This document shows, piece by piece, positions 2 to 59,186 of a stretch of DNA of 64,000 nt; the first letter of the stretch is position 1; each line of letters starts with the position of its first letter. The translations under genes were made by a program, and so were the position numbers. The DNA comes from Bryobacteraceae bacterium (GTDB lineage: Bacteria > Acidobacteriota > Terriglobia > Bryobacterales > Bryobacteraceae): the NCBI GenBank assembly GCA_035295865.1, contig DATGIH010000526.1, forward strand, positions 14,066-78,065. The letters run 5' to 3'. The notes under the pieces were generated by a model, which did no database searches, was not told the origin of the DNA, and was given only the letters and a program-made list of their open reading frames with translations.

Positions 2-1636
2 CAGCGTGAATACCGGACTATTCTCGCGACAGGACTGCGATTGTTGGCTGCGGCGCATCCCAAAGTAGTCGCGATCGACATGGTTTTGGAGGACCAGGCA
101 GGAGCAGCCGAAGACGATCCGCTGGAGCGGGCAATGCAGGCGACGAAGAATCTCGTGCTGGTGGCGCATCTGGCTGGCGATCGTTGGGAGCATCCGCTGG
201 CGAGGTTCGCCAAGTGGGCCGCTGCCGTGGGCCACGACAAAGCCGACGAGCTTTCGCACGATGGCGTGACGCGGCAGATCCCGCTTGAGCAGCGAACCGC
301 GCGTGAGAGGCATTGGGCGCTGTCGCTCGAAGCGTTTCGCTTGGCGCGCGGAGAGCGGATTCTCGAGTCGCCCGAGGAAATTCAAATCGGAAACCTGGTA
401 ATTCCCGCCGCGAGATCCGGCAAACTAAATCGTCCGCTGCGCGTTCTTTATTCAAAACGGCCGGAACAGATCTCGATCAAGCAACTCAATGATGATCCGA
501 AACTGGCGGCACGATTCACGGACAAAACCGTTTTCGTCGGCGTAACATCGGACACCGCGACTTATGATCGCGTTGACACGCCCTTCGGAGGCGGCCGGAT
601 TCCCGGCGTTGAAGTGCACGCGCAGCTTTTTGAAACTCTGGAGCGCGGGCATTTTTTGACCAACGCACCGGAATCATCCGTGCTCGGTTTTTGCCTGCTG
701 GCCGCGATTCTTGCAGCGTTGATTTTTGTCTTTCTGAGTGGATGGCCCGCTTATCTCGCTGCCGGAGCGCTTCTCATCGTCGCACACACCACGCCGTTCC
801 TACTTTTCCAACAAGGGATCGTGTTTCCATACCTCGCCCCGCTGGCTTCCGCGTGGCTGACCGTGGCTGCCGCCGCCAGTTATCAGCATTTCGTGGTGCG
901 TCGCGCGCTGCGCACTTCCGAAACCGAACGGAAGCGCTATCAGCAAGCGATTCATTTCGTCACGCATGAGATGCGCACTCCATTGACAGCCATCCAGGGA
1001 TCGAGCGAGCTGATGGGCCGCTATAACCTCAGCGAAGAAAAGCGCAAACAGATGACCGAGATGATCAACCAGGAATCGAAGCGTCTGGCGCGCATGATCC
1101 AAACGTTTCTGGATGTGGAGCGGCTCTCGGACGGTCAGATGGAGTTGAAGCGCGAGCCGTTCACCGCCAAAGAATTGGTGGAGAACTGTGTGGCGCGAGT
1201 GCGTCCGCTGGGCGAGCGCAAGAACATTCGGATCACTACCGGTGAACTCGCGGGAGCGCTCGAAGGGGATCGCGAACTGATGGAATACGCTGTCTACAAC
1301 CTAATGACGAACGCCGTGAAGTACTCGAACTCGGACACCGAAGTCACGGTCCGCTGCGTCACGGAGGCCGACCGCGTCCGTATTTCCGTCCAGGATCAAG
1401 GAATTGGGATGGATGCCAAAGAATTGCGCCAGATTTTTCAGAAATTCTACCGGACCAAGCGCGCGGAAGCGTCCGGCGAAAAGGGTACCGGCATTGGATT
1501 ATCGATTGTCGAGCAAATTGTTCAGCATCACGGTGGAAAAATGGAAGTCACCAGCCAGCCCGGCCGCGGATCCTGTTTCACCGCTGTTCTTCCGGCCCAC
1601 ATGCGTGCGCCGCAGCCGCCCGCTGTGTCAGTCTAG
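2..1636 (+). CDS. CHASE2-domain sensor histidine kinase (5' end cut by window edge)
   Basis: The frame stays open from nt 2, with no stop upstream of the TTG at 41. It has a CHASE2-like extracytoplasmic N-terminus and hydrophobic spans (VLGFCLLAAILAALIFVFL, AYLAAGALLIVAH, LAPLASAWLTVAAAASY). Kinase motifs present: H-box FVTHEMRTPLTAI, N-box YNLMTNAVKYS, G-boxes DQGIGM and GTGIGLSIV. Confidence 0.85.
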   Translation, partial: QREYRTILATGLRLLAAAHPKVVAIDMVLEDQAGAAEDDPLERAMQATKNLVLVAHLAGDRWEHPLARFAKWAAAVGHDKADELSHDGVTRQIPLEQRTARERHWALSLEAFRLARGERILESPEEIQIGNLVIPAARSGKLNRPLRVLYSKRPEQISIKQLNDDPKLAARFTDKTVFVGVTSDTATYDRVDTPFGGGRIPGVEVHAQLFETLERGHFLTNAPESSVLGFCLLAAILAALIFVFLSGWPAYLAAGALLIVAHTTPFLLFQQGIVFPYLAPLASAWLTVAAAASYQHFVVRRALRTSETERKRYQQAIHFVTHEMRTPLTAIQGSSELMGRYNLSEEKRKQMTEMINQESKRLARMIQTFLDVERLSDGQMELKREPFTAKELVENCVARVRPLGERKNIRITTGELAGALEGDRELMEYAVYNLMTNAVKYSNSDTEVTVRCVTEADRVRISVQDQGIGMDAKELRQIFQKFYRTKRAEASGEKGTGIGLSIVEQIVQHHGGKMEVTSQPGRGSCFTAVLPAHMRAPQPPAVSV

Positions 1637-1671
1637 AAGTAGCTTTGGGGACGGGTTAAGATCGGTGGGCA

Positions 1672-3000
1672 ATGTCAGCGAACATGCAACGGCTATTAGT
1701 AGTAGAAGACGACAACTCCGTAAGAAGCACCATCACCACATTTCTGGAGCTGGAAGGATACGCCGTGGACGCCGTTTCCTCCACGCGTGAAGCTCTGGAA
1801 CGTTTGCGAAATGATGCTTATCCCATAGTCATTACCGATATTTATTTGGACGAGCGAACCGGTTTGGATGTTTTGGCTACCGCGCGCCAGAACAATCCGA
1901 AATGCGCCGTGATTTTGATGACCGCCCGCGGCACCATCGAAACCGTGATGAAAGCCACGCAGGGCGGCGCGTTCGATTACATCGCCAAACCGTTCGAGTT
2001 GGACCGCATGCTCGACACGGTGAAGCGCGCCGAGGCGTCGATCGGCGATCAGGAGCAGGAAAAGGAATCCGAAGTCGACGATCTGCCGCAAAGCGAGATG
2101 ATCGGCAGCTCCGCGAAGATGATCGAGATTTATAAGATGGTCTCGCTGGTCGCGCCGACCAATGCCACCGTTTTGATTGAAGGCGAAACCGGCACCGGCA
2201 AGGAAATGATCGCCCGGATGGTCCACAACAACAGCGCGCGCGCGAACCAGCCGTTCGTTCCAGTGGATTGCGGATCCATCGCGCCTTCGTTGATCGAGAG
2301 CGAACTGTTCGGCGCGTTGAAAGGCGCTTACACCGGCGCCGATCGCGATCGCATGGGCGTCTTTGAAGCGGCCAACAACGGAACCGTATTCCTGGACGAA
2401 ATCGGCGATCTGGAGCTCGGCTTCCAATTGAACCTGCTGCGCTTCTTGCAAGAGAAGGAAATCCGGCCGCTCGGGTCGGCGCGCGGAAAAAAAGTGGATG
2501 TGCGTGTGATCGCAGCGACGAATCGCGATCTGCAGAAGATGGTGGAAGAAGGAAAATTCCGCGAGGACCTTTGGTACCGGTTGAACGTGGTGCGCGTGAT
2601 CATCCCGCCATTGGTGGAACGCCGCGGCGATGTGCCGCTGCTCGCGCATTATTTCTTGAATCGCTACAACGATCGCTACAAGCAGCAGGCCAAGATTACC
2701 GAATCCGGATTGAAGACGCTCGAAAACTACAGTTGGCCGGGCAATGTTCGCCAGTTGCAGCACATGATGGAGCGCCTCACCATTCTAGCGCCGCACGGAA
2801 AAATCGATGAAGCCGCGGTGCGAGAAGCGATCGAGCTCACGGAACCGCGCGACATTGCGAGCGACACATTAGCCGATACGGAAACGGATCAAATCCGGCG
2901 TGTTCTTACGGCCACTGGCGGCAACAAAAGCCGTGCGGCAAAAATCCTGGGCATCGAACGCAAGACTCTCTACCGCAAGCTGGAACGGATGGGGCTGTAG
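1672..3000 (+). CDS. Sigma-54-dependent response regulator (NtrC family)
   Basis: Receiver domain (LLVVEDD, VITDIYLD). AAA+ activator core with Walker A GETGTGKE and the GAFTGA-loop variant GAYTGA. C-terminal Fis-type HTH (SRAAKILGIERKTLYRKL). Starts 36 nt after the kinase gene. Confidence 0.9.
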   Translation: MSANMQRLLVVEDDNSVRSTITTFLELEGYAVDAVSSTREALERLRNDAYPIVITDIYLDERTGLDVLATARQNNPKCAVILMTARGTIETVMKATQGGAFDYIAKPFELDRMLDTVKRAEASIGDQEQEKESEVDDLPQSEMIGSSAKMIEIYKMVSLVAPTNATVLIEGETGTGKEMIARMVHNNSARANQPFVPVDCGSIAPSLIESELFGALKGAYTGADRDRMGVFEAANNGTVFLDEIGDLELGFQLNLLRFLQEKEIRPLGSARGKKVDVRVIAATNRDLQKMVEEGKFREDLWYRLNVVRVIIPPLVERRGDVPLLAHYFLNRYNDRYKQQAKITESGLKTLENYSWPGNVRQLQHMMERLTILAPHGKIDEAAVREAIELTEPRDIASDTLADTETDQIRRVLTATGGNKSRAAKILGIERKTLYRKLERMGL

Positions 3001-49474: not shown

Positions 49475-49964
49475 ATCGGCTGTCGGCGAATGCTCGGGAT
49501 GGCGCGTGTACTGGCAGCACTTCGTGAACGGCGTTGCTCGGAAAAAGCACAAGGGTGTCGCCGCACGGCTCGACGGGGTTTGACGCAACGATCAACTCGC
49601 CGCCCGAAAAGCGCCGCGGCTCGCTGTGCAGAAAATAGACGAACGTTACGGCGCGCGTATCGTCCGGACCTCCGTCGATATGCGCTCGAAAGTAATCGCC
49701 GTCGTTCGAAGCCGCGATCTGATGCTCAATCCGGCCCTGCGGCGATATCCGCCTGAGCCGTTCCAAGAATGTCCCGACGCGTGGCTCCAGCGTCTCCAAC
49801 ACTCTCGCCCGCCGCACTCCTTCCACCACCGCGCGGCCTCCGCCGATCGACACGGTGGCTAAGGTGAAATGCGATTCGCGAGCCAGAACGGAATCGAGCA
49901 GCGCCAGCCGCGCTTCGCCCAGGAAGCCCGGGATGATCGTCAGACCAGGGGCGCCGGGTGCCAT
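49434..49964 (-). CDS. 2OG-Fe(II) oxygenase (prolyl-hydroxylase-like)
   Basis: The H-x-D...H facial triad is candidate HIDGG and HEV, followed by RFTVNGW. The FVYFLH...FSGGEL core is typical of the 2OG-FeII_Oxy_3 type. Confidence 0.75.
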   Translation of the reverse strand: MAPGAPGLTIIPGFLGEARLALLDSVLARESHFTLATVSIGGGRAVVEGVRRARVLETLEPRVGTFLERLRRISPQGRIEHQIAASNDGDYFRAHIDGGPDDTRAVTFVYFLHSEPRRFSGGELIVASNPVEPCGDTLVLFPSNAVHEVLPVHAPSRAFADSRFTVNGWIHRDPPR

Positions 49965-50422
49965 TCCATGAAATAGTTCATCGGATCTTCGCGCACGATC
50001 TGAAATCCGAGCCGACGGTGGAACTTCAGCGACCCGGGATTGAACCGGTCCACCATGGATTTGATCGGCAGCTTTGCGTTTTGCGCTTCCTGTTGCAACC
50101 GCTGCACCAGCACGGTTCCCAAACCCTTGCTCTGCACGTTCGGATGTAGGGCGATGTCCACCAGCAGAAAAGCGCGGTCCCCTGGCGCCACCCAGAGCCG
50201 ACCCACGGGCTTTGAATCGAGCAGCACCAGGTGATAGCAGGAGTTGGGAAATTGTTGCGTGTAGGAAGAGAGCTGCGCATGGAACTGCATCCGTAGCAGA
50301 TGCTCTTGTTGCGCGGGCGTCAGTTGGGTTAACGCAAAGAGCGGTCCCCGGATGGCCCGGTACAATTCGTACAGGAAGATTTCATCTTGCGCGAGAGCCG
50401 GACGAACCGCGAGAGTCGACAT
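49940..50422 (-). CDS. GNAT family N-acetyltransferase
   Basis: Acetyl-CoA binding motif-A-like QSKGLGTVLVQRL and the C-terminal FHRRLGF block. Confidence 0.8.
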   Translation of the reverse strand: MSTLAVRPALAQDEIFLYELYRAIRGPLFALTQLTPAQQEHLLRMQFHAQLSSYTQQFPNSCYHLVLLDSKPVGRLWVAPGDRAFLLVDIALHPNVQSKGLGTVLVQRLQQEAQNAKLPIKSMVDRFNPGSLKFHRRLGFQIVREDPMNYFMEWHPAPLV

Positions 50423-50452
50423 GTCGGACGAGCGCCGGGAGGGCCGCTGATG

Positions 50453-50980
50453 TTACGGCCGCGCTGGATAAATGCCTTGCAGCGCGATGCAGAAGTTGAG
50501 CACCAGGTACGGCATCATATTGTTGTGCGGCTGGTTATTGCCGATCACCCCGAGCATATTCTGATTCATGTTCACCAGCGGCGAGGTTGCCGTGGAGTAA
50601 ATCTGCGTTGCGGGGCCGGTGCACAGCGCATTACCGCCAGGAGATCCGCTGTTGGGAGGCGCGTCGTCGGGATCCGTCATGAAGTTGTGGTTGTGCCTCG
50701 GCATTTCGTTCAGCTGCAGCGTGACGAATTGACTTCCTCCGTTTTCCCCAATGCTGTACTGGCTAAGCCCTGAGCCGCTTCCCTGGCTGATCGACAGGTT
50801 GCCTTGCATATTCGGCAACGCGAAGTTGGACTTACCGTCGCCGCCGTAGTAGGTCCCGATCAAGGAGAAGAGCGCTGTGTTGGAGGAAATGGGGATGATT
50901 TGGCCATCGCAAAGCGCCCAGCCTTTGGGAGCGAAATTGCAACCGAAAACCCGAACTTCCGCGACAAATTGATCAGACAT
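50453..50980 (-). CDS. Phage tail collar domain protein (MdpB-like), paralog 3
   Basis: I place the start at the ATG at 50978-50980, preceded by an AAAGGAGA SD. Motifs: NFAPKGWALCDGQ...ISSNTALFSLIGTYYGGDGKSNFALPNMQG, EMPRHNH, and C-terminal PYLVLNFCIALQGIYP. Confidence 0.85.
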   Translation of the reverse strand: MSDQFVAEVRVFGCNFAPKGWALCDGQIIPISSNTALFSLIGTYYGGDGKSNFALPNMQGNLSISQGSGSGLSQYSIGENGGSQFVTLQLNEMPRHNHNFMTDPDDAPPNSGSPGGNALCTGPATQIYSTATSPLVNMNQNMLGVIGNNQPHNNMMPYLVLNFCIALQGIYPARP

Positions 50981-50993
50981 TCTGGTCTCCTTT

Positions 50994-51500
50994 CTAATTC
51001 CGGCTGGGGAAAACGCCAAACAGGCAGATGACCCAGTTCATAACAAGATAAGGCGACTGATTCGGATGCGCCTGGCTGCCGCCAGTCATGCTGATGTCCG
51101 AGGGGAACATTAGCGCCGGGCTATTGAGCGGGCCATATATGGTTAAGCTTCCGGCGGTGTTCGCCAGCAAATTGTTGGTCGGACTGACATTGTTTTGTAC
51201 AGCATTAATTGCTTGCACAAAATGCGGATGCGCCGGCATCTCGCCGGTGGTGAGCGTGTGGTTGATTTCTCCGCCCTTCTGGCCCTGCACGAAGCCACCG
51301 CCAAAATGCATCGCCGCCGACCCTTGCAAATTCGGAAGCGCAAAAGTCCGCTGGCCGTCGCCGCCGTAGGTGGTTCCAAGCAGCGCGAAAAGAGCCTGGT
51401 TACTGCTGATCTGCAAGAGTTGGCCGTTGCACTGTGCCCAGTTTTTGGGCGCGAAATTAAAGGAAACCAATTTCAATTCGCTGGTATATGGAGTAGGCAT
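50994..51500 (-). CDS. Phage tail collar domain protein (MdpB-like), paralog 2
   Basis: Motifs: NFAPKNWAQCNGQ...ISSNQALFALLGTTYGGDGQRTFALPNLQG, EMPAHPH, PYLVMNWVICLFGVFP. An AGAGGA SD sits upstream. Confidence 0.85.
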   Translation of the reverse strand: MPTPYTSELKLVSFNFAPKNWAQCNGQLLQISSNQALFALLGTTYGGDGQRTFALPNLQGSAAMHFGGGFVQGQKGGEINHTLTTGEMPAHPHFVQAINAVQNNVSPTNNLLANTAGSLTIYGPLNSPALMFPSDISMTGGSQAHPNQSPYLVMNWVICLFGVFPSRN

Positions 51501-51521
51501 GAATTCCTCTTCTTTTCCGCG

Positions 51522-52040
51522 TCAGTTCTGAGTGGGAAAAACACCGTATAGCGAAATCACCCAAGTCATAGTTAAAAACGGCTGCAGGTTGTTGTGGGGA
51601 ATGCTCCCTCCCGCCGGTGTTATGGCGGCGGCTGGGTTCATGGCACGTAGCGGCGTCGGGCTGGTGACATAAACCTGAGTCGCGGCCGCCGCGAGCGCGT
51701 TGTTCTGTGGAAAGTTGCTGTTTCCATTCACGTTCGACGCGTTCAACGGGTGGTTATGCGTAGGCAATTCCTGCGTGGTCAGCGTGACATTTTCCGTGCC
51801 GCCGCGCTGGCCGATAATGAACGGAGTTCCCCCGAAATTTCCCTGATGCAACGGTGAGCGGCCCTGCAAATCCGGCATTTGAAAGTTCTGTTGGCCGTCA
51901 CCGCCGTACGTTGTGCCAATGAGTTGGAACAGAGCCTCGTTGGAAGAGATAGCGATAGTTTGGCCGGAACACATTAACCAGCCGTTAGGCGCGAAGTTGA
52001 ACGCCACAAGGCGGCATTCACCAATATAAGGGTCGGACAT
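51522..52040 (-). CDS. Phage tail collar domain protein (MdpB-like), paralog 1
   Basis: Motifs: NFAPNGWLMCSGQ...ISSNEALFQLIGTTYGGDGQQNFQMPDLQG, ELPTHNH, PFLTMTWVISLYGVFP. An AAGGAG SD sits upstream. Confidence 0.85.
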   Translation of the reverse strand: MSDPYIGECRLVAFNFAPNGWLMCSGQTIAISSNEALFQLIGTTYGGDGQQNFQMPDLQGRSPLHQGNFGGTPFIIGQRGGTENVTLTTQELPTHNHPLNASNVNGNSNFPQNNALAAAATQVYVTSPTPLRAMNPAAAITPAGGSIPHNNLQPFLTMTWVISLYGVFPTQN

Positions 52041-52435
52041 CCTGGAAAAGCTCCTTCTTTGGATTTCGACACAAGTTGGAGTAGCTTGATTACGTTATCA
52101 CTATTCCGAAAGCCTGGCAACGATATTTTTCAAGGTCCGGGCCACTGTGATGCGACCGACGATCGGAGCTTGTGAAGGATCGTAAATATGTTTCATCCTG
52201 CTCTGGAGATTTAAGCCCCAAGCAACTGAAAATCATTGCACGACGCCAGATGTACCTCTGGCTCAGTGATTCGCCGGCACGTAATGCCTTATGAATTATC
52301 GGCGAAATACACTAGTACTTATTCGACATTCAAACTCGGTGAATCTTCACAATGTACGCAGATTTCCGTGATAGACTTTACAAGCGACGCTTGGAGCAGG
52401 TGACTTCCGGCTTCGGTGCACGAGGAGGGTTCGTA

Positions 52436-55400
52436 GTGTTTAATCGAAAAGCGTTCTCATCTTTATTCTTGATTCTCGTCATAGCGCTGGTTGTTTCGAC
52501 AGGCGCGGCGAGTGCGGCAGTGGTCTGCACGCCCGGCTCGGGTACGGTTACCTGCACAGGCGGCCCCGGAGCTTCCGTCAGCTACAATAACCACACCGCT
52601 GGCACCACCGCGGACGGCTCTCCCTTCCCATCCACCATCCCAGTGACAGGAGGCTCCGGCACGGTTTCCAGCGTCACGGTGACATTGAATGGCTATAACG
52701 CATCTCCCGCCATCACGGGCTCCGGTTCGGCCGATGTCGGTATTTTGCTCACCGACCCCAACGGCAGAAATTTCCAATTCATTCGCGACGTCGGTAGGGG
52801 CACCAACGGCCAGACTAACTTAACGGTCAAGATACAGGACGGGGCCACGCAAATTCCCAGCGGCACGAACACTTGGACCACCAGCGGCACATTCGGCCCG
52901 ACCGCAAACGCAGGCGCCTTCGAAAATAGTCCAGCTTACGGCCTCGGTACGATCAACTCGGCGGCGCCGCTGGGAACTTCCACGTTCGCCAGCGTTTTCA
53001 CCGGCGAGCCCGTCAATGGAAATTGGAACCTCTATCTGGCCGATGATGGGACGGACGCCGCGGTCAGCTGGTCAAGCTGGGACATCACCATCAATTTCAC
53101 GGCCGCATCCAGTCCCAGCACTACGACGCTGAGCCCGAGCAATTCCACGCCTTTCACCTCCGGGACGAACAGCACTGTGACATTGACGGCCACGGTCACG
53201 TCGGGAGCGACGGGAACCGTCACGTTCAAGGACGGGAGCACCAACCTAACCTGCATCGGTGGAAATCCGGCGGCGCTCAGCGGCGGCAGCGCGACTTGCA
53301 GCACATCCTTTTCCACCGAAGGAATCCACGGGCTCTCTGCGAACTATTCGGGCGATGGAACCTTCGTGGCCAGTTCGGGCACCGCGAACATTTTCGCCAT
53401 GAATCACGCATCGAACCCGGTCAGCGGGACGTATTGCAACGCCGGAACCATTTCAAGCGATGGCGACTCGGAAGCCGGGTTCTCTCACACCGCGCCTTAT
53501 CCAACGGTAATTTTCGTGGGCGATGGCGTGAACACGGATATTACGAACTCGGTTTCCACCGTGTCGGTGAAGCTGTCGAACCTCACTCCCGGAGCTTCCA
53601 CCGACTTGCACATGTTGCTGGTGTCACCCGACCACTCGCACGCCCTCGATTTCTGGTCGAATGCCGGAGGATCTTCGGGGAACGGCGTCGGAGCTTACAA
53701 CATTCAAGATGGCGGTTCACAGCTACCCTGTGCATCCACGCTTACGCCCGGCACTTACGGGCCGACATCCTGCAGCGCGGACAGTAATCCGACTTCCGAC
53801 GGGTTCACACCCGGGCCGCCTAATCCGGCCCCGCAAGTGCCTGCCAGCTTCTCGCTCGCCCCGCCCGCAGGTTCAAGTAGCTTTGAAACCGCCTTCAACG
53901 GCGCCACCGCGCACGGTGCATGGTCGCTTTATATTTCGAACGAGTCGGGTTCGACCACTACTACGGCTTCCGGCGGTTGGTGCCTCAATATCACGGCCGC
54001 CACGGGACACCCGACAACCACCGCGGTCACCCCGAATCCGACCTTTGCCGCCTTGGGCCAGACGGTAACCTTTACCGCGACGGTATCAAGTTCACCTGCG
54101 GTAAATCAGGGAACTGTGACGTTCACAGAAAACGGCGCGCCCCTGGTGGGCGCCTTAAACAATGGGGTCGCCGGCGTTTCGGCAGGTGTGGCATCGGTCA
54201 CAACGAACCAGCTTCCGGAAGGCGATCATACCGTCACAGCCACGTATCACGACTCCTCGAACACATACAATGACAGCCTCGGCACCACTTCCATGCGCGT
54301 GGATAAGACCACCAGCACTCCTACACTTTCCGGCGCCACCTGGAGCTACTGCAATACTGGTGCGGTCACCATTCCGGCCGGCACTCTTACGGTCAACGAT
54401 ACCGGACCCGCGCAGCCGAACCCGTCGAATATTTTCGTCACTAATCTGCCAGGCACCATTTCAAACGTGAACGTCACGTTGAAAGGCCTGCACCTGGCCC
54501 ACGGCGCGAGCGATCTGGAGTCCCTGCTGGTGGGGCCGAACGGTGCAAATCAGCCTACCGCCGCTCAAACTCTGGACTTCTTCTCACTCGTGGACAACGG
54601 CACGGCGTTTGGCCCGCAAGACACCACCTTCGAGGATGGCTCGTCGCTGTCGTGCAATTCGGTCACCGCCATTTTTGCCACGAACGGTCCAACAAGTTGC
54701 GGTGCGACCTCGTACACGGCTAGTCTCTTTTACATGCTGCCCAGCCCCATCCACCAGGGCACCCCCACGGGCTCGTCTACGTTTGCTTCGGCCTACCAGA
54801 ACACGATTCCCAACGGCACCTGGAGCCTCTACTTCGACCAGCCCCAACACGATACAGGCAGCGGTTTGAACGGCGGCTGGTGTGCCAATTTCATCGAGAA
54901 TCCCGTCACCGGCATCGGGACCACGTCGCACACCGGTCCTGCGCCCAACAACCATATGCGGCAGGGCGGAACCGGCACGGTTACTTTGAGCTTGCTGAAC
55001 AACGGCGACTCCAACAGCCTGGGTTCGACGGGCGATCCGGACCAAGCCGTGGCCCACGCAATGACCGTCACGGGCACCCTCCCTGCGGGGCTGTCATTTG
55101 GAACTTTGCCCACCACGCCATGGAACTGCATAGGTGTTACCAACTCAGTGACCTGCACGAATTTGAGTGCGATCGCCGCCGGGTCCAGTTATCCGGCGCT
55201 CAATCTGCCGGTGGTTGTAGCTTCGAACGCCCCTGTCACGGCTACGGTGAGTGGATTCACGTTCGGCGGCGCCGGCATGTCAGCGGGAACTTTTTCGAGC
55301 GATACCATCACCATCGATCCGGCGCCCATCCTGGCCATTTCCAAGAACCACCTCGGAACGTTCACGCAGGGCTCAACCGCAACCTGGACCCTCCAGGTTT

Positions 55401-56908
55401 CGAATACCTCCGCCACCACAGCGGGCGCAACCGACGGTTCCACCGTAACGGTCACCGATACTCTGCCAACCGGTTATACGCTCTCCTCGGGAATAGGAAC
55501 AAACTGGAATTGCTCCGGAACTTCCACAGTTACTTGTACAACCACGGCTGTTGTCGCCGGCAATGGAGGAAGCTTCCCATTGATCACTCTCACAGTGAAC
55601 GTACCGGCCGGCTCTCCGACTTCGGTCAGCAATAGCGGCAGCGTATACGGCGGCGGCGATCTCGTTCACACCGTGAGCAATCAGGCGATCTCAAACACCG
55701 ACACAGTGAGCGTGGTGCAGGTTCCAGCGAAGATCGTCATCAACGGCAGCCAAACGCAATCGACCGGAGTCAACACCGCGTTCGGAAGTTTGGCCGTCAC
55801 GATTGAAGACGCGAGCAATGTCGTCATCCCGAATTACTCTTCGGTAGTGTTCACGGCCACAACGGGAAGTAATGGCCAGAGCGGAACCTTCGGCAATACA
55901 ACTGGAACCACGACCATTAGCGCGAACGCGAGCGGGATTGCAGATCCCGGCACGTTCACCGCGAACGGAAAAGTGGGTACATATTCCGTTGGCGTCACCG
56001 CCGGAAGCGCGACGACCAGCTTCACTCTGACGAACACGGGAACCGCGGCGGTGATTACGAACGTCACGTCCACCACTGCAAACGGATCGTATACCGTCGG
56101 CGCGATGATCAACGTCACGGTCACGTTTAACAAAACGGTGAACGTGACGGGTACGCCGCTGCTGGCTCTCAATTCGGGCGGAACTGCCAGCTTCAGCTCC
56201 GGATCGGGATCGGCGAATTTGTCGTTCATTTATACGGTCGCAGCCGGTCAAAATAGTTCGCGCCTGGATGCTACCTCGACTAGCGCGCTGTCGCTCAACG
56301 GCGGAACCATCCAAGACACCAGCGGCACGGCCGCGGTCCTGACACTGCCTACGCCTGGTGCGGCGGGGTCGTTGGGAGCGAATAAAAACATCGTGATCGA
56401 CACGACATCGCCGACGGTGGTCAGTTACTCGGTGGATTTCGGCAGCCAGGCGTACAACCTGACTGGCGCATCGCGCACCACGCATCTTCCTTGGAGCGTG
56501 ACGGGAGTCACCGTAGTATTTTCGAAGCCAATCGCCACCGCAAACGCGGCGAGCCTTGGCGGGATTTCCGCCACGGGGTTGTCTGGCCTCGGAACATCCA
56601 CCCTAACCTGGACCTTCCCGGCGATCACCAATGCTACACTCAGCACCACGCTCGCCGGCAGCGGACCCAATGCAATCAAGGACGCTGCGGGCAACGCGTT
56701 GTCGGGAGGGGCTGGGTTTAGTCAGTCCTTCAGCGTTTTGTATGGCGATTTCAATGGAGATGGTGTAGTGAATGCGAGCGACCTAACATTGGTCAACAAC
56801 GCTACGCACGCTCCTTATAACATCTTCGCGGATTTGAATGGCGATGGTGTGGTGAATGCGACCGATGTCAACATCGCCCGTACCAGAATTGGTAATTCCC
56901 AGCAGTGA
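52436..56908 (+). CDS. Giant secreted surface protein: three P-domain-like modules, Ig-like and DUF11-like repeats, C-terminal dockerin
   Basis: The GTG at 52436 follows a GGAGGG SD and opens the signal peptide (M)FNRKAFSSLFLILVIALVVSTGAASA; the track ORF starts at 52352. P-domain-like ends: NGNWNLYLADD, HGAWSLYISNESG, NGTWSLYFDQ. Ig-like TVTFKDGSTNLTC. DUF11-like TWTLQVSNTS...VTDTLPTGYTL. Dockerin duplicate GDFNGDGVVNASDL / ADLNGDGVVNATDV. Confidence 0.85.
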   Translation: MFNRKAFSSLFLILVIALVVSTGAASAAVVCTPGSGTVTCTGGPGASVSYNNHTAGTTADGSPFPSTIPVTGGSGTVSSVTVTLNGYNASPAITGSGSADVGILLTDPNGRNFQFIRDVGRGTNGQTNLTVKIQDGATQIPSGTNTWTTSGTFGPTANAGAFENSPAYGLGTINSAAPLGTSTFASVFTGEPVNGNWNLYLADDGTDAAVSWSSWDITINFTAASSPSTTTLSPSNSTPFTSGTNSTVTLTATVTSGATGTVTFKDGSTNLTCIGGNPAALSGGSATCSTSFSTEGIHGLSANYSGDGTFVASSGTANIFAMNHASNPVSGTYCNAGTISSDGDSEAGFSHTAPYPTVIFVGDGVNTDITNSVSTVSVKLSNLTPGASTDLHMLLVSPDHSHALDFWSNAGGSSGNGVGAYNIQDGGSQLPCASTLTPGTYGPTSCSADSNPTSDGFTPGPPNPAPQVPASFSLAPPAGSSSFETAFNGATAHGAWSLYISNESGSTTTTASGGWCLNITAATGHPTTTAVTPNPTFAALGQTVTFTATVSSSPAVNQGTVTFTENGAPLVGALNNGVAGVSAGVASVTTNQLPEGDHTVTATYHDSSNTYNDSLGTTSMRVDKTTSTPTLSGATWSYCNTGAVTIPAGTLTVNDTGPAQPNPSNIFVTNLPGTISNVNVTLKGLHLAHGASDLESLLVGPNGANQPTAAQTLDFFSLVDNGTAFGPQDTTFEDGSSLSCNSVTAIFATNGPTSCGATSYTASLFYMLPSPIHQGTPTGSSTFASAYQNTIPNGTWSLYFDQPQHDTGSGLNGGWCANFIENPVTGIGTTSHTGPAPNNHMRQGGTGTVTLSLLNNGDSNSLGSTGDPDQAVAHAMTVTGTLPAGLSFGTLPTTPWNCIGVTNSVTCTNLSAIAAGSSYPALNLPVVVASNAPVTATVSGFTFGGAGMSAGTFSSDTITIDPAPILAISKNHLGTFTQGSTATWTLQVSNTSATTAGATDGSTVTVTDTLPTGYTLSSGIGTNWNCSGTSTVTCTTTAVVAGNGGSFPLITLTVNVPAGSPTSVSNSGSVYGGGDLVHTVSNQAISNTDTVSVVQVPAKIVINGSQTQSTGVNTAFGSLAVTIEDASNVVIPNYSSVVFTATTGSNGQSGTFGNTTGTTTISANASGIADPGTFTANGKVGTYSVGVTAGSATTSFTLTNTGTAAVITNVTSTTANGSYTVGAMINVTVTFNKTVNVTGTPLLALNSGGTASFSSGSGSANLSFIYTVAAGQNSSRLDATSTSALSLNGGTIQDTSGTAAVLTLPTPGAAGSLGANKNIVIDTTSPTVVSYSVDFGSQAYNLTGASRTTHLPWSVTGVTVVFSKPIATANAASLGGISATGLSGLGTSTLTWTFPAITNATLSTTLAGSGPNAIKDAAGNALSGGAGFSQSFSVLYGDFNGDGVVNASDLTLVNNATHAPYNIFADLNGDGVVNATDVNIARTRIGNSQQ

Positions 56909-56927
56909 GGACTGAACGGAGACTGTC

Positions 56928-57581
56928 ATGAAAAATAAAATGCAATACTTCCGGCTTGGATTATTGGTGCCTGCGTTCGCTGCTCTGCTGATTTCTTCGA
57001 CGCCGCTACGCGCGGACTTCATCTTTAGCCTCGATCCGGTCATCACCGCCCAAGCAGGTTCGACTGGAAACGTTTTCGACGTCCTGTTGAAAAATCTCGG
57101 AGCATCGACGGTCACCGTAGGAAGCTTCTCATTCGGCATCACGACGGCGAATACCGATATCACGTTCACTAACGCGGATACCTCCACGACAGCTCCCTAC
57201 ATTTTTGCTGGAGATTCGTTCGACGACATGAACGGATTCACGCTTTACACGAACTCTCTACCCGGTCAAACGGTGGAGGCTGCTGACGCATCAGCCAGCT
57301 TGGTAGGGGCCAGCGTCGGAGCCGGTGTGACCGTTGGAGTAGGCCGCATTATGTTTGACATTGCGAACGGCGCCACTCCTGGCCCGTTCGCTGTGACCTT
57401 CGAGGCATCGCCCACGACTGGCCTTTCCGATACCAACGGCAACGGTCTTGACTTCACCACAACGGACGGCACGATTACCATCACGCCCGCCACAAATCCT
57501 GTTCCCGAACCAGCGCAGGCCACCCTGCTGTTCTGCGCTTTCGCGGGAATCGTGCTTTTAAGCAAGCGCCGCCGCCCGTAA
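56928..57581 (+). CDS. PEP-CTERM anchored protein with cohesin-like domain
   Basis: Signal peptide. A ~150-aa beta-rich domain follows (AQAGSTGNVFDVLLKNLG..., VGRIMFDIANGATPGPFAVTFE, DFTTTDGTITI) that resembles cohesin modules. C-terminal VPEPAQATLLFCAFAGIVLLSKRRRP is a PEP-CTERM sorting signal. Confidence 0.75.
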   Translation: MKNKMQYFRLGLLVPAFAALLISSTPLRADFIFSLDPVITAQAGSTGNVFDVLLKNLGASTVTVGSFSFGITTANTDITFTNADTSTTAPYIFAGDSFDDMNGFTLYTNSLPGQTVEAADASASLVGASVGAGVTVGVGRIMFDIANGATPGPFAVTFEASPTTGLSDTNGNGLDFTTTDGTITITPATNPVPEPAQATLLFCAFAGIVLLSKRRRP

Positions 57582-57608: not shown

Positions 57609-59186
57609 ATGCCAATCCGTAAAGCTGCTTTCCTAATCGCGCTCACCGCCGCGATTCTCGGCGCCGCCGAATCCGCCAAAGACAAAGCCATGAAGGCCGA
57701 TCTCGCCGGCCAGATCGACGCCATGCGCGATCAGGTGCAGATCATGGTGGACACCATCTTCAGCTTCGGCGAGCTCGGCTTTCAGGAATACGAAACCTCG
57801 AAATACTTGACGACCATGCTCGAAGCGGAAGGATTCACCGTGGAGCGCGGCATCGCCGGAATTCCCACCGCGTGGATGGCCACTTGGGGATCGGGCAAGC
57901 CGGTGATTGCGCTCGGCTCCGATATCGATTGCATCCCGCAAGCTTCACAGAAGCCCGGCGTGGCGTATCACGATCCGCTGGTCGAAGGCGCGCCCGGACA
58001 CGGCGAGGGTCACAATTCGGGGCAAGCGGTGAATATCGTGGCGGCGCTCGCGGTGAAGCGGCTCATGGAACGCGAGCACATTCAAGGCACCATCAAGATC
58101 TGGCCGGGGGTCGCCGAAGAGCTGCTCGGATCGAAAGCGTATTACGTCCGCGCCGGATATTTCAAAGACGTCGATGTCACGCTCTTCTCGCACGTCAGCA
58201 GCAAATTCAACGCGCCTTGGGGTGAAACGCTCGGCAGCGGATTGGTTTCCGTAGAGTATCTGTTCAAAGGCGAGAGTTCGCACAGCGCGGGAGCTCCCTG
58301 GCGCGGACGCAGCGCGCTCGACGCGGTAGAACTGATGGACTCCGGGTGGAACTTCCGCCGCGAGCATCTGCGCTTGCAGCAGCGGTCGCATTACGTGATC
58401 ACCGATGGCGGCGATCAGCCGAACGTGGTGCCTCCAACGGCCGCCGTCTGGTATTACTTCCGCGAGCTGGATTATCCGCACATCAAAGGACTGTGGGAGA
58501 TCGGCGACAAGATGGCGCAAGGCGCGACATTGATGACCGACACGACGTTCACCGAGCGCGTTCTCGGCGAGGCATGGCCCGTGCATATGAATAAGCCGAT
58601 CGCGGAAGCCATGTACGCGAACATCAAGCAAGTCGGACTGCCGACGTGGACGGAGGACGATCAGAAACTGGCGAAGGCGATCCAAAAAGAGCTGAAGGTG
58701 AAAGAGGAGGGTCTGGCGACCAAGATCGACGAACAGAAACCGCCTCCGAAAGAGGAAGAGAAGATGGGCGGCGGTTCAGACGACATCGGCGACATTTCGT
58801 GGACCGTGCCGACCGTCACGCTTTGGTTCCCGTCGAACATCCCGAATATGCCCGGCCACAATTGGGCTGACGCGATCGCGATGGCGACGCCAATCGCGCA
58901 CAAAGGCGCGGTCGCAGGCGCGAAAGTGCAGGCGATGACGATGCTCGATCTGCTGACGCATCCGGATCTGGTGCAGCAGGCCTGGGATTACTACAAGAAT
59001 GTTCAGACCAAAGACGTGAAGTACACGCCGCTGATGCGTCCCGAAGATAAGCCCGCGATTTGGCTGAACGAAAAGCGGATGGAGAAGTACCGGCCGCTGA
59101 TGAAGCCGTTCTACTACGATTCGAAGAAGTACAAAACATACCTGGAGCAGTTAGGGATCAAGTATCCCACTGTCCGGACTCAGTAA
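57609..59186 (+). CDS. Secreted M20 family amidohydrolase (AbgB-like)
   Basis: Signal peptide. Metal-binding context GHGEGHNSGQ and overall M20D/AbgB-like layout. Confidence 0.7.
   Translation: MPIRKAAFLIALTAAILGAAESAKDKAMKADLAGQIDAMRDQVQIMVDTIFSFGELGFQEYETSKYLTTMLEAEGFTVERGIAGIPTAWMATWGSGKPVIALGSDIDCIPQASQKPGVAYHDPLVEGAPGHGEGHNSGQAVNIVAALAVKRLMEREHIQGTIKIWPGVAEELLGSKAYYVRAGYFKDVDVTLFSHVSSKFNAPWGETLGSGLVSVEYLFKGESSHSAGAPWRGRSALDAVELMDSGWNFRREHLRLQQRSHYVITDGGDQPNVVPPTAAVWYYFRELDYPHIKGLWEIGDKMAQGATLMTDTTFTERVLGEAWPVHMNKPIAEAMYANIKQVGLPTWTEDDQKLAKAIQKELKVKEEGLATKIDEQKPPPKEEEKMGGGSDDIGDISWTVPTVTLWFPSNIPNMPGHNWADAIAMATPIAHKGAVAGAKVQAMTMLDLLTHPDLVQQAWDYYKNVQTKDVKYTPLMRPEDKPAIWLNEKRMEKYRPLMKPFYYDSKKYKTYLEQLGIKYPTVRTQ

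Follow-up and report, generated by a model that had tools for sequence, protein, structure and literature searches.

A two-gene cassette of Bryobacteraceae pairing a dockerin-tailed giant protein with a putative cohesin-fold PEP-CTERM anchor

How might a very large exported protein that seems to carry no anchor of its own be retained at the surface of a diderm bacterium? The question is raised by two adjacent genes within a 64,000-nucleotide stretch of DNA from a Bryobacteraceae bacterium of the phylum Acidobacteriota (contig DATGIH010000526.1, positions 14,066 to 78,065 of the forward strand), the whole of which is referred to below as the window. The first gene encodes a giant secreted protein ending in a dockerin, and the second a small protein with a predicted cohesin fold and a PEP-CTERM sorting signal. 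By analogy with known anchoring scaffoldins, we consider it probable that this cassette provides a single-cohesin anchor, sorted by the PEP-CTERM/exosortase pathway, that holds dockerin-tagged cargo in a diderm and operates without carbohydrate-active enzymes. Display of the giant through a cohesin-dockerin contact had been proposed in an earlier examination of the letters of this DNA (hereafter the sequence-only reading), and the computational analysis presented here supports that interpretation, display itself being something that we infer.

The dockerin-tailed giant and its small neighbor

The elements that carry the argument all lie on the forward strand of the window, at the following positions.

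52436..56908, +: giant secreted protein, dockerin-tailed cargo; open reading frame (ORF) of 1490 amino acids from GTG 52436
52436..52516, +: Sec-type signal peptide MFNRKAFSSLFLILVIALVVSTGAASA of the giant, with a basic n-region, a hydrophobic core and an ASA|A site, judged by eye
56561..56731, +: conserved, X-module-like pre-dockerin segment, ...LSGLGTSTLTWTF...LAGSGPNAIKDAAGNALSGGAGFSQSF, which aligns across giants with unrelated cargo
56732..56905, +: C-terminal dockerin of the giant, matched by Pfam Dockerin_1 (E 2e-9) and by dockerin sequences of the PDB
56909..56927, +: intergenic spacer of 19 nt containing a GGAG ribosome-binding site
56928..57581, +: 217-amino acid cohesin-fold PEP-CTERM protein, the proposed anchor; ORF with 53 close homologues
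56928..57014, +: signal peptide MKNKMQYFRLGLLVPAFAALLISSTPLRA of the small protein, with A29 almost invariant and with conservation of the mature N-terminus that follows "ARAD"
57015..57488, +: cohesin-fold beta-sandwich, residues 30-187 (AlphaFold2 and Foldseek)
57498..57578, +: PEP-CTERM sorting signal, comprising VPEP, a 17-residue hydrophobic helix and KRRRP

The giant terminates in GDFNGDGVVNASDL...ADLNGDGVVNATDV, where the sequence-only reading had recognized a duplicated calcium-loop dockerin. Pfam agrees, matching Dockerin_1 (PF00404) at residues 1464-1508 as counted from ATG 52352 (E 2e-9; 38 bits vs. a cut-off of 22.9), and dockerin chains were the only matches of this C-terminus in a search of PDB sequences (e.g., 2y3n_B, E 3e-4). 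The two segments expected of a dockerin are both present, each with an EF-hand-like loop of 12 residues bearing D or N at positions 1, 3, 5, 9, and 12 (DFNGDGVVNASD at 56747-56782 and DLNGDGVVNATD at 56831-56866). Across 24 lineages the dockerins align gap-free and always occupy the extreme C-terminus, in the form ...WGDFNDDGVVNASD-x16-DMNGDGVVNxxDVxIVRxRxGTSLP. The helices that follow the loops are asymmetric, VNxA after loop 1 and VRxRxG after loop 2; a dual binding mode therefore cannot be assumed, and this lack of symmetry makes it plausible that the dockerin would bind in one orientation only, with the second repeat dominant. The LSGLGTSTLTWTF...LAGSGPNAIKDAAGNALSGGAGFSQSF motif of the preceding segment is also found in four related loci (L032-L035). 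In the 64 kb of the window, the dockerin signature, the cohesin-like ORF and the PEP-like tail each occur exactly once and adjoin one another, so that their pairing is not attributable to chance.

The small gene, preceded by GGAG 6 nt before its ATG, begins 19 nt after the giant gene, as the sequence-only reading had stated. An AlphaFold2 model of its product, built from an alignment of 51 homologues, has a mean predicted local distance difference test score (pLDDT) of 89.5; blocks within residues 31-190 average 88-98, and a helix at residues 13-22, inside the signal peptide, has low pLDDT. When compared with the PDB by Foldseek, this model gave 107 matches at E<=1e-3; the best 50 of these are cohesins without exception, with types I, II, and III represented. 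The best match is CohA2 of Clostridium acetobutylicum (E 3.8e-10; TM normalized to target 0.80-0.82), and TM values normalized to target range from 0.70 to 0.82 for type I cohesins. Other matches include the cohesins of OlpC, OlpA, and CipA, those of ScaB, ScaC, and ScaE of Ruminococcus flavefaciens, and, outside cellulosomes, the cohesin of Archaeoglobus fulgidus and cohesin-like modules of Clostridium perfringens. The family of the small protein has many members: among 1.84 billion cluster representatives at 50% identity, a search with its profile found 444 at E<=1e-30 and 1119 at E<=1e-10, nearly all of the best 150 listed being 190-240 amino acids long. No natural fusion of cohesin and dockerin was found among the longer members, whose extensions consist of leader or read-through sequence. 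About 24 non-redundant pairs fall into two clades, in which dockerins with "NATD" accompany cohesins with "FDDxNGF" and the other dockerins accompany "LFGPxI."

Exosortase is thought to process PEP-CTERM proteins and to deliver them to the cell exterior or the exopolysaccharide layer. The small protein ends in ...NPVPEPAQATLLFCAFAGIVLLSKRRRP, a tail that can be written VPEP-AQATLLFCAFAGIVLLS-KRRRP and in which P193, E194, and P195 are invariant or nearly so across the family. The identification of VPEP, transmembrane helix and RRRP as a PEP-CTERM signal is supported at the level of the family, since PF07589 is matched at E<=1 by 40 of 51 close relatives (best E 5e-8) and by 121 of 145 wider relatives (best E 3e-8), and TIGR02595 by 25 of the 51. 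Several PEP-CTERM families of NCBIfam are matched weakly, all far below cut-off, the best for the small protein being NF033947 "cistern" (15 bits vs. a cut-off of 60). A separate protein of 125 amino acids (P0436) has precomputed matches to both Dockerin_1 and PEP-CTERM, and might represent either a fragment or a dockerin with a direct PEP-CTERM anchor.

As for the giant gene itself, the ORF read from its first ATG (52352..56908) would encode 1518 amino acids. A GGAGG motif lies 7 nt 5′ of the GTG at 52436, and the product read from this codon begins with MFNRKAFSSLFLILVIALVVSTGAASA|A and aligns with the N-termini of homologues (MVNRKTHSSYLAVVGLALAVSTGAANA...). For these two reasons the GTG at 52436 is almost certainly the true start, in agreement with the length of about 1490 amino acids given by the sequence-only reading.

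Synteny and exchange of cargo

Related loci were gathered by looking up identical proteins and by scanning collections of genomes and metagenomes for patterns, and do not form a random sample. Their named hosts are Bryobacteraceae, Bryobacterales, Terriglobia, "Candidatus Acidiferrales" and unclassified metagenome-assembled genomes (MAGs) of Acidobacteriota. Many of the loci come from metagenomes as short contigs, and frameshifts or assembly errors have split the giant gene in L008, L015, L036, and L037. The cohesin-like gene led to 30 distinct loci, and in 27 of them it is directly preceded, on the same strand, by an ORF that ends in a two-loop dockerin; this ORF is cut by a contig end or degraded in four of the 27 (L018, L021, L008, and L015). 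The synteny of the two genes in relatives, which had been put forward as a check on the display idea, is thereby confirmed. Spacing between them ranges from an overlap to about 55 nt, and the pairing persists where the cohesin-like proteins share as little as about 35% identity. The converse also applies to two loci found through the dockerin (L036 and L037), where a cohesin-like gene lies directly downstream. In both, the giant gene is broken into several same-strand ORFs in long-contig assemblies (L036 1278-4229; L037 2246-7474 and 7511-9166), and in L037 the cohesin-like ORF reads through the PEP-CTERM helix into a GH39 gene, which is a separate downstream gene; the splits and the read-through are probably indel errors of assembly and not biology. 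A second two-loop dockerin signature was found in none of the related loci examined, and wherever the signature occurs it adjoins the cohesin-like gene. In L020, two cohesin-like genes stand in tandem (1444-2067 and 2168-2581) downstream of a single dockerin-tailed gene, the second being cut by the contig end and matching the family profile with E 4e-41.

Three cases depart from this arrangement. In L016 (5929-6558), the cohesin-like gene (58% identity) has no giant gene beside it and its PEP tail is truncated (VPEPAEGELVICGLAMADSPS*), so that it looks like a decaying orphan; it follows a gene for a 1117-amino acid protein resembling a winged-helix/Ser-Thr-kinase/TPR regulator. A variant of 433 amino acids, present in L029 (3299-4600) and identically in L030 (5734-7035), has no dockerin gene upstream; in place of PEP-CTERM, its cohesin-like domain leads into a C-terminal domain of about 180 residues that contains Cys and has no Pfam match. 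Finally, a distant cohesin-like member at the P0198 locus has, two genes downstream, a 958-amino acid Peptidase_S8 protein with TSP_3 and Dockerin_1, which would be a true dockerin-tagged subtilase and a possible cargo.

The remainder of the giant is far less constant. When the giant of the window is compared with those of L024, L031, L010, and L032, alignment is confined to the final 113-187 residues (43-63% identity), which comprise the X-like segment plus the dockerin. Elsewhere the cargo consists of FG-GAP and PASTA domains, PASTA x3, PASTA x17 (in a protein of more than 2650 amino acids), Sortilin/BNR-like repeats, MBG and PASTA, or Big_2 or Big_3_5. These comparisons show that evolution has kept together the X-dockerin tail and the gene for the PEP-CTERM cohesin-fold protein and has swapped all else; with anchor and tail retained and cargo exchanged, the cassette behaves as a generic plug-and-socket display module. 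The exchange can also be followed from the side of the cargo: of the 120 cargo-part homologues listed, 26 carry this dockerin at the end, 94 have various other C-terminal tails, and none terminates in PEP-CTERM. Because its dockerin-less paralogues bear other tails, the dockerin acts as an exchangeable C-terminal targeting module. Recurrent tails among these paralogues (P0211-P0296) are ...NPTNGFINFTPLAFSGTF, ...SANGGA..G.I.KLNQLQ and ...RILGGAAPVAPLATAAANNTTGAKP, which may represent further modules for C-terminal sorting or anchoring in Acidobacteria. A search with the X-dockerin tail as query returned only proteins of up to 202 amino acids, mostly fragments, and missed the giant of the window itself, and so is uninformative on cargo; two of its matches on long contigs are pieces of frameshift-split giants.

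The cargo carried in the window is built from repeated modules, whose residue ranges follow the 1518-amino acid numbering (start at ATG 52352) and not the 1490-amino acid one.

52520..53101, +: P-domain-like module 1, residues 57-250, NGNWNLYLADD; P_proprotein at residues 209-246, E 2e-4
53144..53389, +: Big_3_5 Ig-like domain (Pfam PF16640, E 4e-21), matched in two stretches, best at residues 265-346
53402..54001, +: P-domain-like module 2, residues 351-550, HGAWSLYISNE; hhalign probability 98.9% vs. module 1 and 99.4% vs. module 3
54323..54901, +: P-domain-like module 3, residues 658-850, NGTWSLYFDQ; homologous to modules 1 and 2 by hhalign

In Pfam, the giant matches Big_3_5 twice (PF16640, E 4e-21), Dockerin_1 and, marginally, P_proprotein. 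The P-domain-like modules alternate with the Big_3_5 domains, the second of which sits between modules 2 and 3. The three motifs noticed in the sequence-only reading are found at residues 222, 521, and 821, and the modules that contain them, each of about 195 residues, are mutually homologous (hhalign probability 98-99%, E 3e-13 to 5e-22); their assignment to the P-domain is a more marginal matter. Module 1 scores 21.7 bits vs. a cut-off of 21 for PF01483, over the last 39 profile positions only. Of 18 module sequences, 10 match P_proprotein (best E 8e-5), and no other Pfam family is matched. A profile of the modules found no match among PDB sequences. For module 3, AlphaFold2 gave a model of low confidence (pLDDT 62.8), with which Foldseek retrieved nothing at E<=1e-3; among the matches listed, furin and Kex2 have the highest TM normalized to query (0.34-0.39, E ~1). 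"P-domain-like" is a fair label for modules whose membership in the family is only marginal.

The absence of a subtilisin catalytic domain is confirmed, with no match to Peptidase_S8 in the giant at E<=1 in Pfam. The accompanying view that P-domains without a protease are unusual finds no support: many homologues of the giant in Acidobacteriota and Actinomycetota combine PF01483 with Ig-like domains and lack PF00082, and some of these protease-less proteins are named "subtilisin-like proprotein convertase family protein" on the basis of PF01483 alone. Several homologues match DUF11 (PF01345) in the region after module 3. No glycoside hydrolase (GH) domain or carbohydrate-binding module (CBM) was found in the giant or in the cargo proteins sampled, so that the locus does not qualify as a cellulosome. 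With no sign of an enzyme, the architecture suggests a large adhesin-like or matrix-binding surface protein, and the cargo would probably function in adhesion or matrix binding.

Proposed display by an anchored cohesin and its alternatives

According to the display model, both proteins would be exported by Sec by means of their signal peptides, and exosortase would recognize the PEP-CTERM tail of the small protein and bring it to the cell exterior or to the exopolysaccharide layer. The giant would be all-beta, built of Ig-like repeats (Big_3_5 among them) and of three P-domain-like modules with a putative jelly-roll fold, and it has no anchor of its own; its dockerin would bind the cohesin in a Ca2+-dependent manner, and the anchored cohesin would retain it at the surface. 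This retention step is modeled on the anchoring scaffoldins of cellulosomes. A wider proposal is tentative, its chances falling a little short of even: the hidden cohesin family might comprise exosortase-sorted receptors of Acidobacteria, and perhaps of other PEP-CTERM diderms, forming a general Gram-negative system for the display or piggy-back sorting of X-dockerin cargo. In such a system the swappable cargo, unrelated to cellulose degradation, might include adhesin-like giants, PASTA arrays, FG-GAP propellers and subtilases.

Several results weigh against the display model. At the level of sequence, Pfam Cohesin (PF00963) is matched at E<=1 neither by the small protein nor by any of its 51 close relatives (0/51), and by 2 of 145 wider relatives (best E 0.029). 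The family profile met among PDB sequences only an insignificant match at E=1, to the R. flavefaciens cohesin 5aoz, and hhalign gave a probability of 0.3% against the verified CipA cohesin 1aoh; the sole piece that it aligned, PYIFAGDSF with VFLFAEDSG, is a lead and not evidence. The cohesin-like character claimed by the sequence-only reading is therefore upheld by the fold and not by the sequence scores of Pfam or hhalign. Since the fold matches cohesins and the sequence does not, the small protein is treated here as a member of a profile-invisible family, and its domain is likely a cohesin-fold domain that current profiles miss, a homology that depends on the predicted fold. The PEP-CTERM profile PF07589 likewise gives the small protein of the window itself E 0.53 (10.9 bits vs. 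a cut-off of 20.7). No Pfam match to an exosortase was found among the 38 window ORFs scanned, which are mostly housekeeping genes (e.g., gyrA, gap, gmk, tmk, and coaBC), 64 kb saying nothing about the genome. To our knowledge, the fate of PEP-CTERM proteins after cleavage has not been established experimentally in this phylum. Lastly, the model offers no route by which a Sec-exported giant of 1490 residues would cross the outer membrane, and this leaves room for a variant involving periplasmic contact and the PEP-CTERM route.

The missing sequence-level link to cohesins is also an argument for a different reading, which we consider unlikely, whereby the two genes would be co-expressed and their products would not bind each other. 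The small protein would then be an independent PEP-CTERM protein of the matrix or surface with a generic, cohesin-resembling beta-sandwich, and the dockerin-like tail of the giant would serve Ca2+ stabilization, polysaccharide binding or a receptor encoded elsewhere. Such independence would agree with the missing adjacent dockerin gene in L016, L029/L030, and P0198 and with a weak full-length similarity to another PEP-CTERM family, NF033947 (best E 1.8e-5, below cut-off). It fits poorly with a fold that matches cohesins specifically, and not other sandwiches, in the best 50 of 107 cases, with adjacency in 27 of 30 loci, none of which has a second dockerin signature, and with the X-dockerin tail and the small gene being the only elements conserved across unrelated cargo. 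Direct functional coupling is favored because a pairing conserved over unrelated cargo is hard to explain otherwise. A juxtaposition by chance or an annotation artifact, without any functional unit, is scarcely credible: the fragmentary metagenome contigs and frameshift-split giants counsel general caution only, whereas order, strand and spacing are conserved in 27 of 30 independent loci over MAGs of Bryobacterales and Terriglobia, and both ORFs have ribosome-binding sites and signal peptides, so that synteny effectively refutes this explanation.

If the two products are coupled, the contact might alternatively serve export. In this rather improbable scheme, cohesin and dockerin would meet in the periplasm and the small protein would carry the cargo in trans through the PEP-CTERM/exosortase route, after which the cargo may be released into the exopolysaccharide matrix. 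An adaptor of this kind would suit a giant with a Sec signal only, of which none of the 120 listed paralogues has PEP-CTERM in cis, and a gene order with tight spacing or overlap that suggests stoichiometric co-production; PEP-CTERM genes have also been linked to the formation of flocs and matrix (PMC9850573). Piggy-back export by exosortase is, however, without precedent, and the data do not separate an adaptor from a static anchor, the adaptor having the same steps as the display model plus one. Retention by an anchored cohesin stays the preferred explanation of the cassette.

Genomic setting and comparison with known systems

Upstream, the giant gene shares a control region with genes of the opposite strand.

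52041..52435, no strand: divergent intergenic region between the Collar-gene operon (-) and the giant gene (+), 311 bp to the ATG and 395 bp to the GTG

The G+C content of this region is 0.46-0.47 vs. 0.58 for the window, which bears out the A/T-richer divergent region of 311-395 bp shared with the collar operon that had been described from the sequence. On its far side (49940-52040, -) lie three tandem genes with Phage-Tail-Collar domains (E ~1e-24 each) and a GNAT acetyltransferase gene, divergent from the giant. At least three further lineages (L003-L005, L006/L014, and L011), down to 40% cohesin identity, have the Collar arrangement ahead of the giant, L003-L005 with the GNAT gene as well; the arrangement is absent from L001, L007, L010, and L024. 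On the forward strand, no sigma-70-like site was found before the cassette and matches to sigma-54-like sites are at chance level; no terminator-like site was found between the giant and small genes or after them. A gene for a 525-amino acid M20-type peptidase-like protein with a signal-peptide-like N-terminus begins 27 nt after the small gene (57609-59186, +) and, with no terminator-like site between, may be co-transcribed with the cassette. Elsewhere among the loci examined, this downstream position is taken by other genes (RecQ helicase, Y1 transposase, periplasmic binding protein). At the beginning of the window (41-3000, +), a CHASE2 histidine kinase gene is followed by that of a sigma-54-dependent response regulator (Response_reg, Sigma54_activat, and HTH_8). 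In another bacterium, a PEP-CTERM gene is reported to depend on RpoN (PMC9850573); the pair in the window, however, lies 50 kb from the cassette, and no match to a sigma-54 promoter was found ahead of the cassette.

The role of PEP-CTERM proteins after exosortase processing is poorly understood, and we know of no described PEP-CTERM family whose annotation names a cohesin or a receptor function toward a partner. A search of 8.3 million full texts found no paper that mentions PEP-CTERM together with cohesin or dockerin. The parts are known, and their combination, the hidden cohesin family and the logic of the cassette appear to be undescribed. Non-cellulosomal cohesin and dockerin modules are catalogued in all domains of life, with a function given as unknown (PMC5244752, citing Peer et al., 2009), and the cassette joins this question to that of the fate of PEP-CTERM proteins in a recurrent and tractable one-to-one gene pair. 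If the display model is true, the cohesin family would be a cell-side receptor and the dockerin an exchangeable address tag, and hundreds of PEP-CTERM proteins now labeled "hypothetical" in abundant soil Acidobacteria would gain a function. Such a system would also extend the anchoring-scaffoldin principle from Gram-positive sortase and SLH systems to exosortase in diderms, and would offer new orthogonal cohesin-dockerin pairs for the engineering of protein assemblies.

Among PEP-CTERM substrates, such as the floc-associated PepA, the small protein is ordinary in having an N-terminal signal peptide, a small size and a PEP motif followed by a transmembrane helix and a basic cluster. Among cohesins, it resembles the non-cellulosomal modules of A. 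fulgidus (2xdh) and of a C. perfringens GH84 protein (2jh2/2w1n), both among its fold matches, as a cohesin-type module outside cellulose degradation; unlike these modules, which were found by sequence models of cohesin and none of which is known to bear a PEP-CTERM signal, its family fails those models. OlpA and OlpC, which tether dockerin proteins to the cell surface through a single cohesin, come nearer to the proposed function. Like OlpA and OlpC of Clostridium thermocellum (3ul4 and 4dh2), which are matched in fold with E 3e-9 to 4e-8, the small protein has a single cohesin, and as in type I complexes the dockerin of the cassette is type I-like, with two duplicated segments of calcium loop and helix. 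It is nonetheless shorter than type I dockerins, with 16 residues between the loops, and its helices differ (VNxA vs. VRxRxG), and the anchoring of OlpA and OlpC relies on non-covalent SLH modules. ScaE of R. flavefaciens is attached through LPXTG and sortase, other anchoring scaffoldins through SLH modules, and ScaE receives partners tailed with X-dockerin, including non-enzymatic ones and a peptidase (PMC12484212). Its cohesin (2zf9) is also among the fold matches of the small protein. On the one hand, the small protein is like ScaE in its size, its one cohesin, its C-terminal sorting signal for a dedicated transpeptidase and its proposed X-dockerin-tailed partner. On the other hand, ScaE belongs to a Gram-positive bacterium, to peptidoglycan and to a cellulosome, whereas the cassette involves PEP-CTERM and exosortase in a diderm, has no carbohydrate-active enzyme or CBM, contains a cohesin missed by Pfam Cohesin and encodes the partner in the same two-gene unit. 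By this analogy, ScaE would be the closest functional analogue of the proposed anchor, with the SLH-anchored type of OlpA, OlpC, and SdbA also close.

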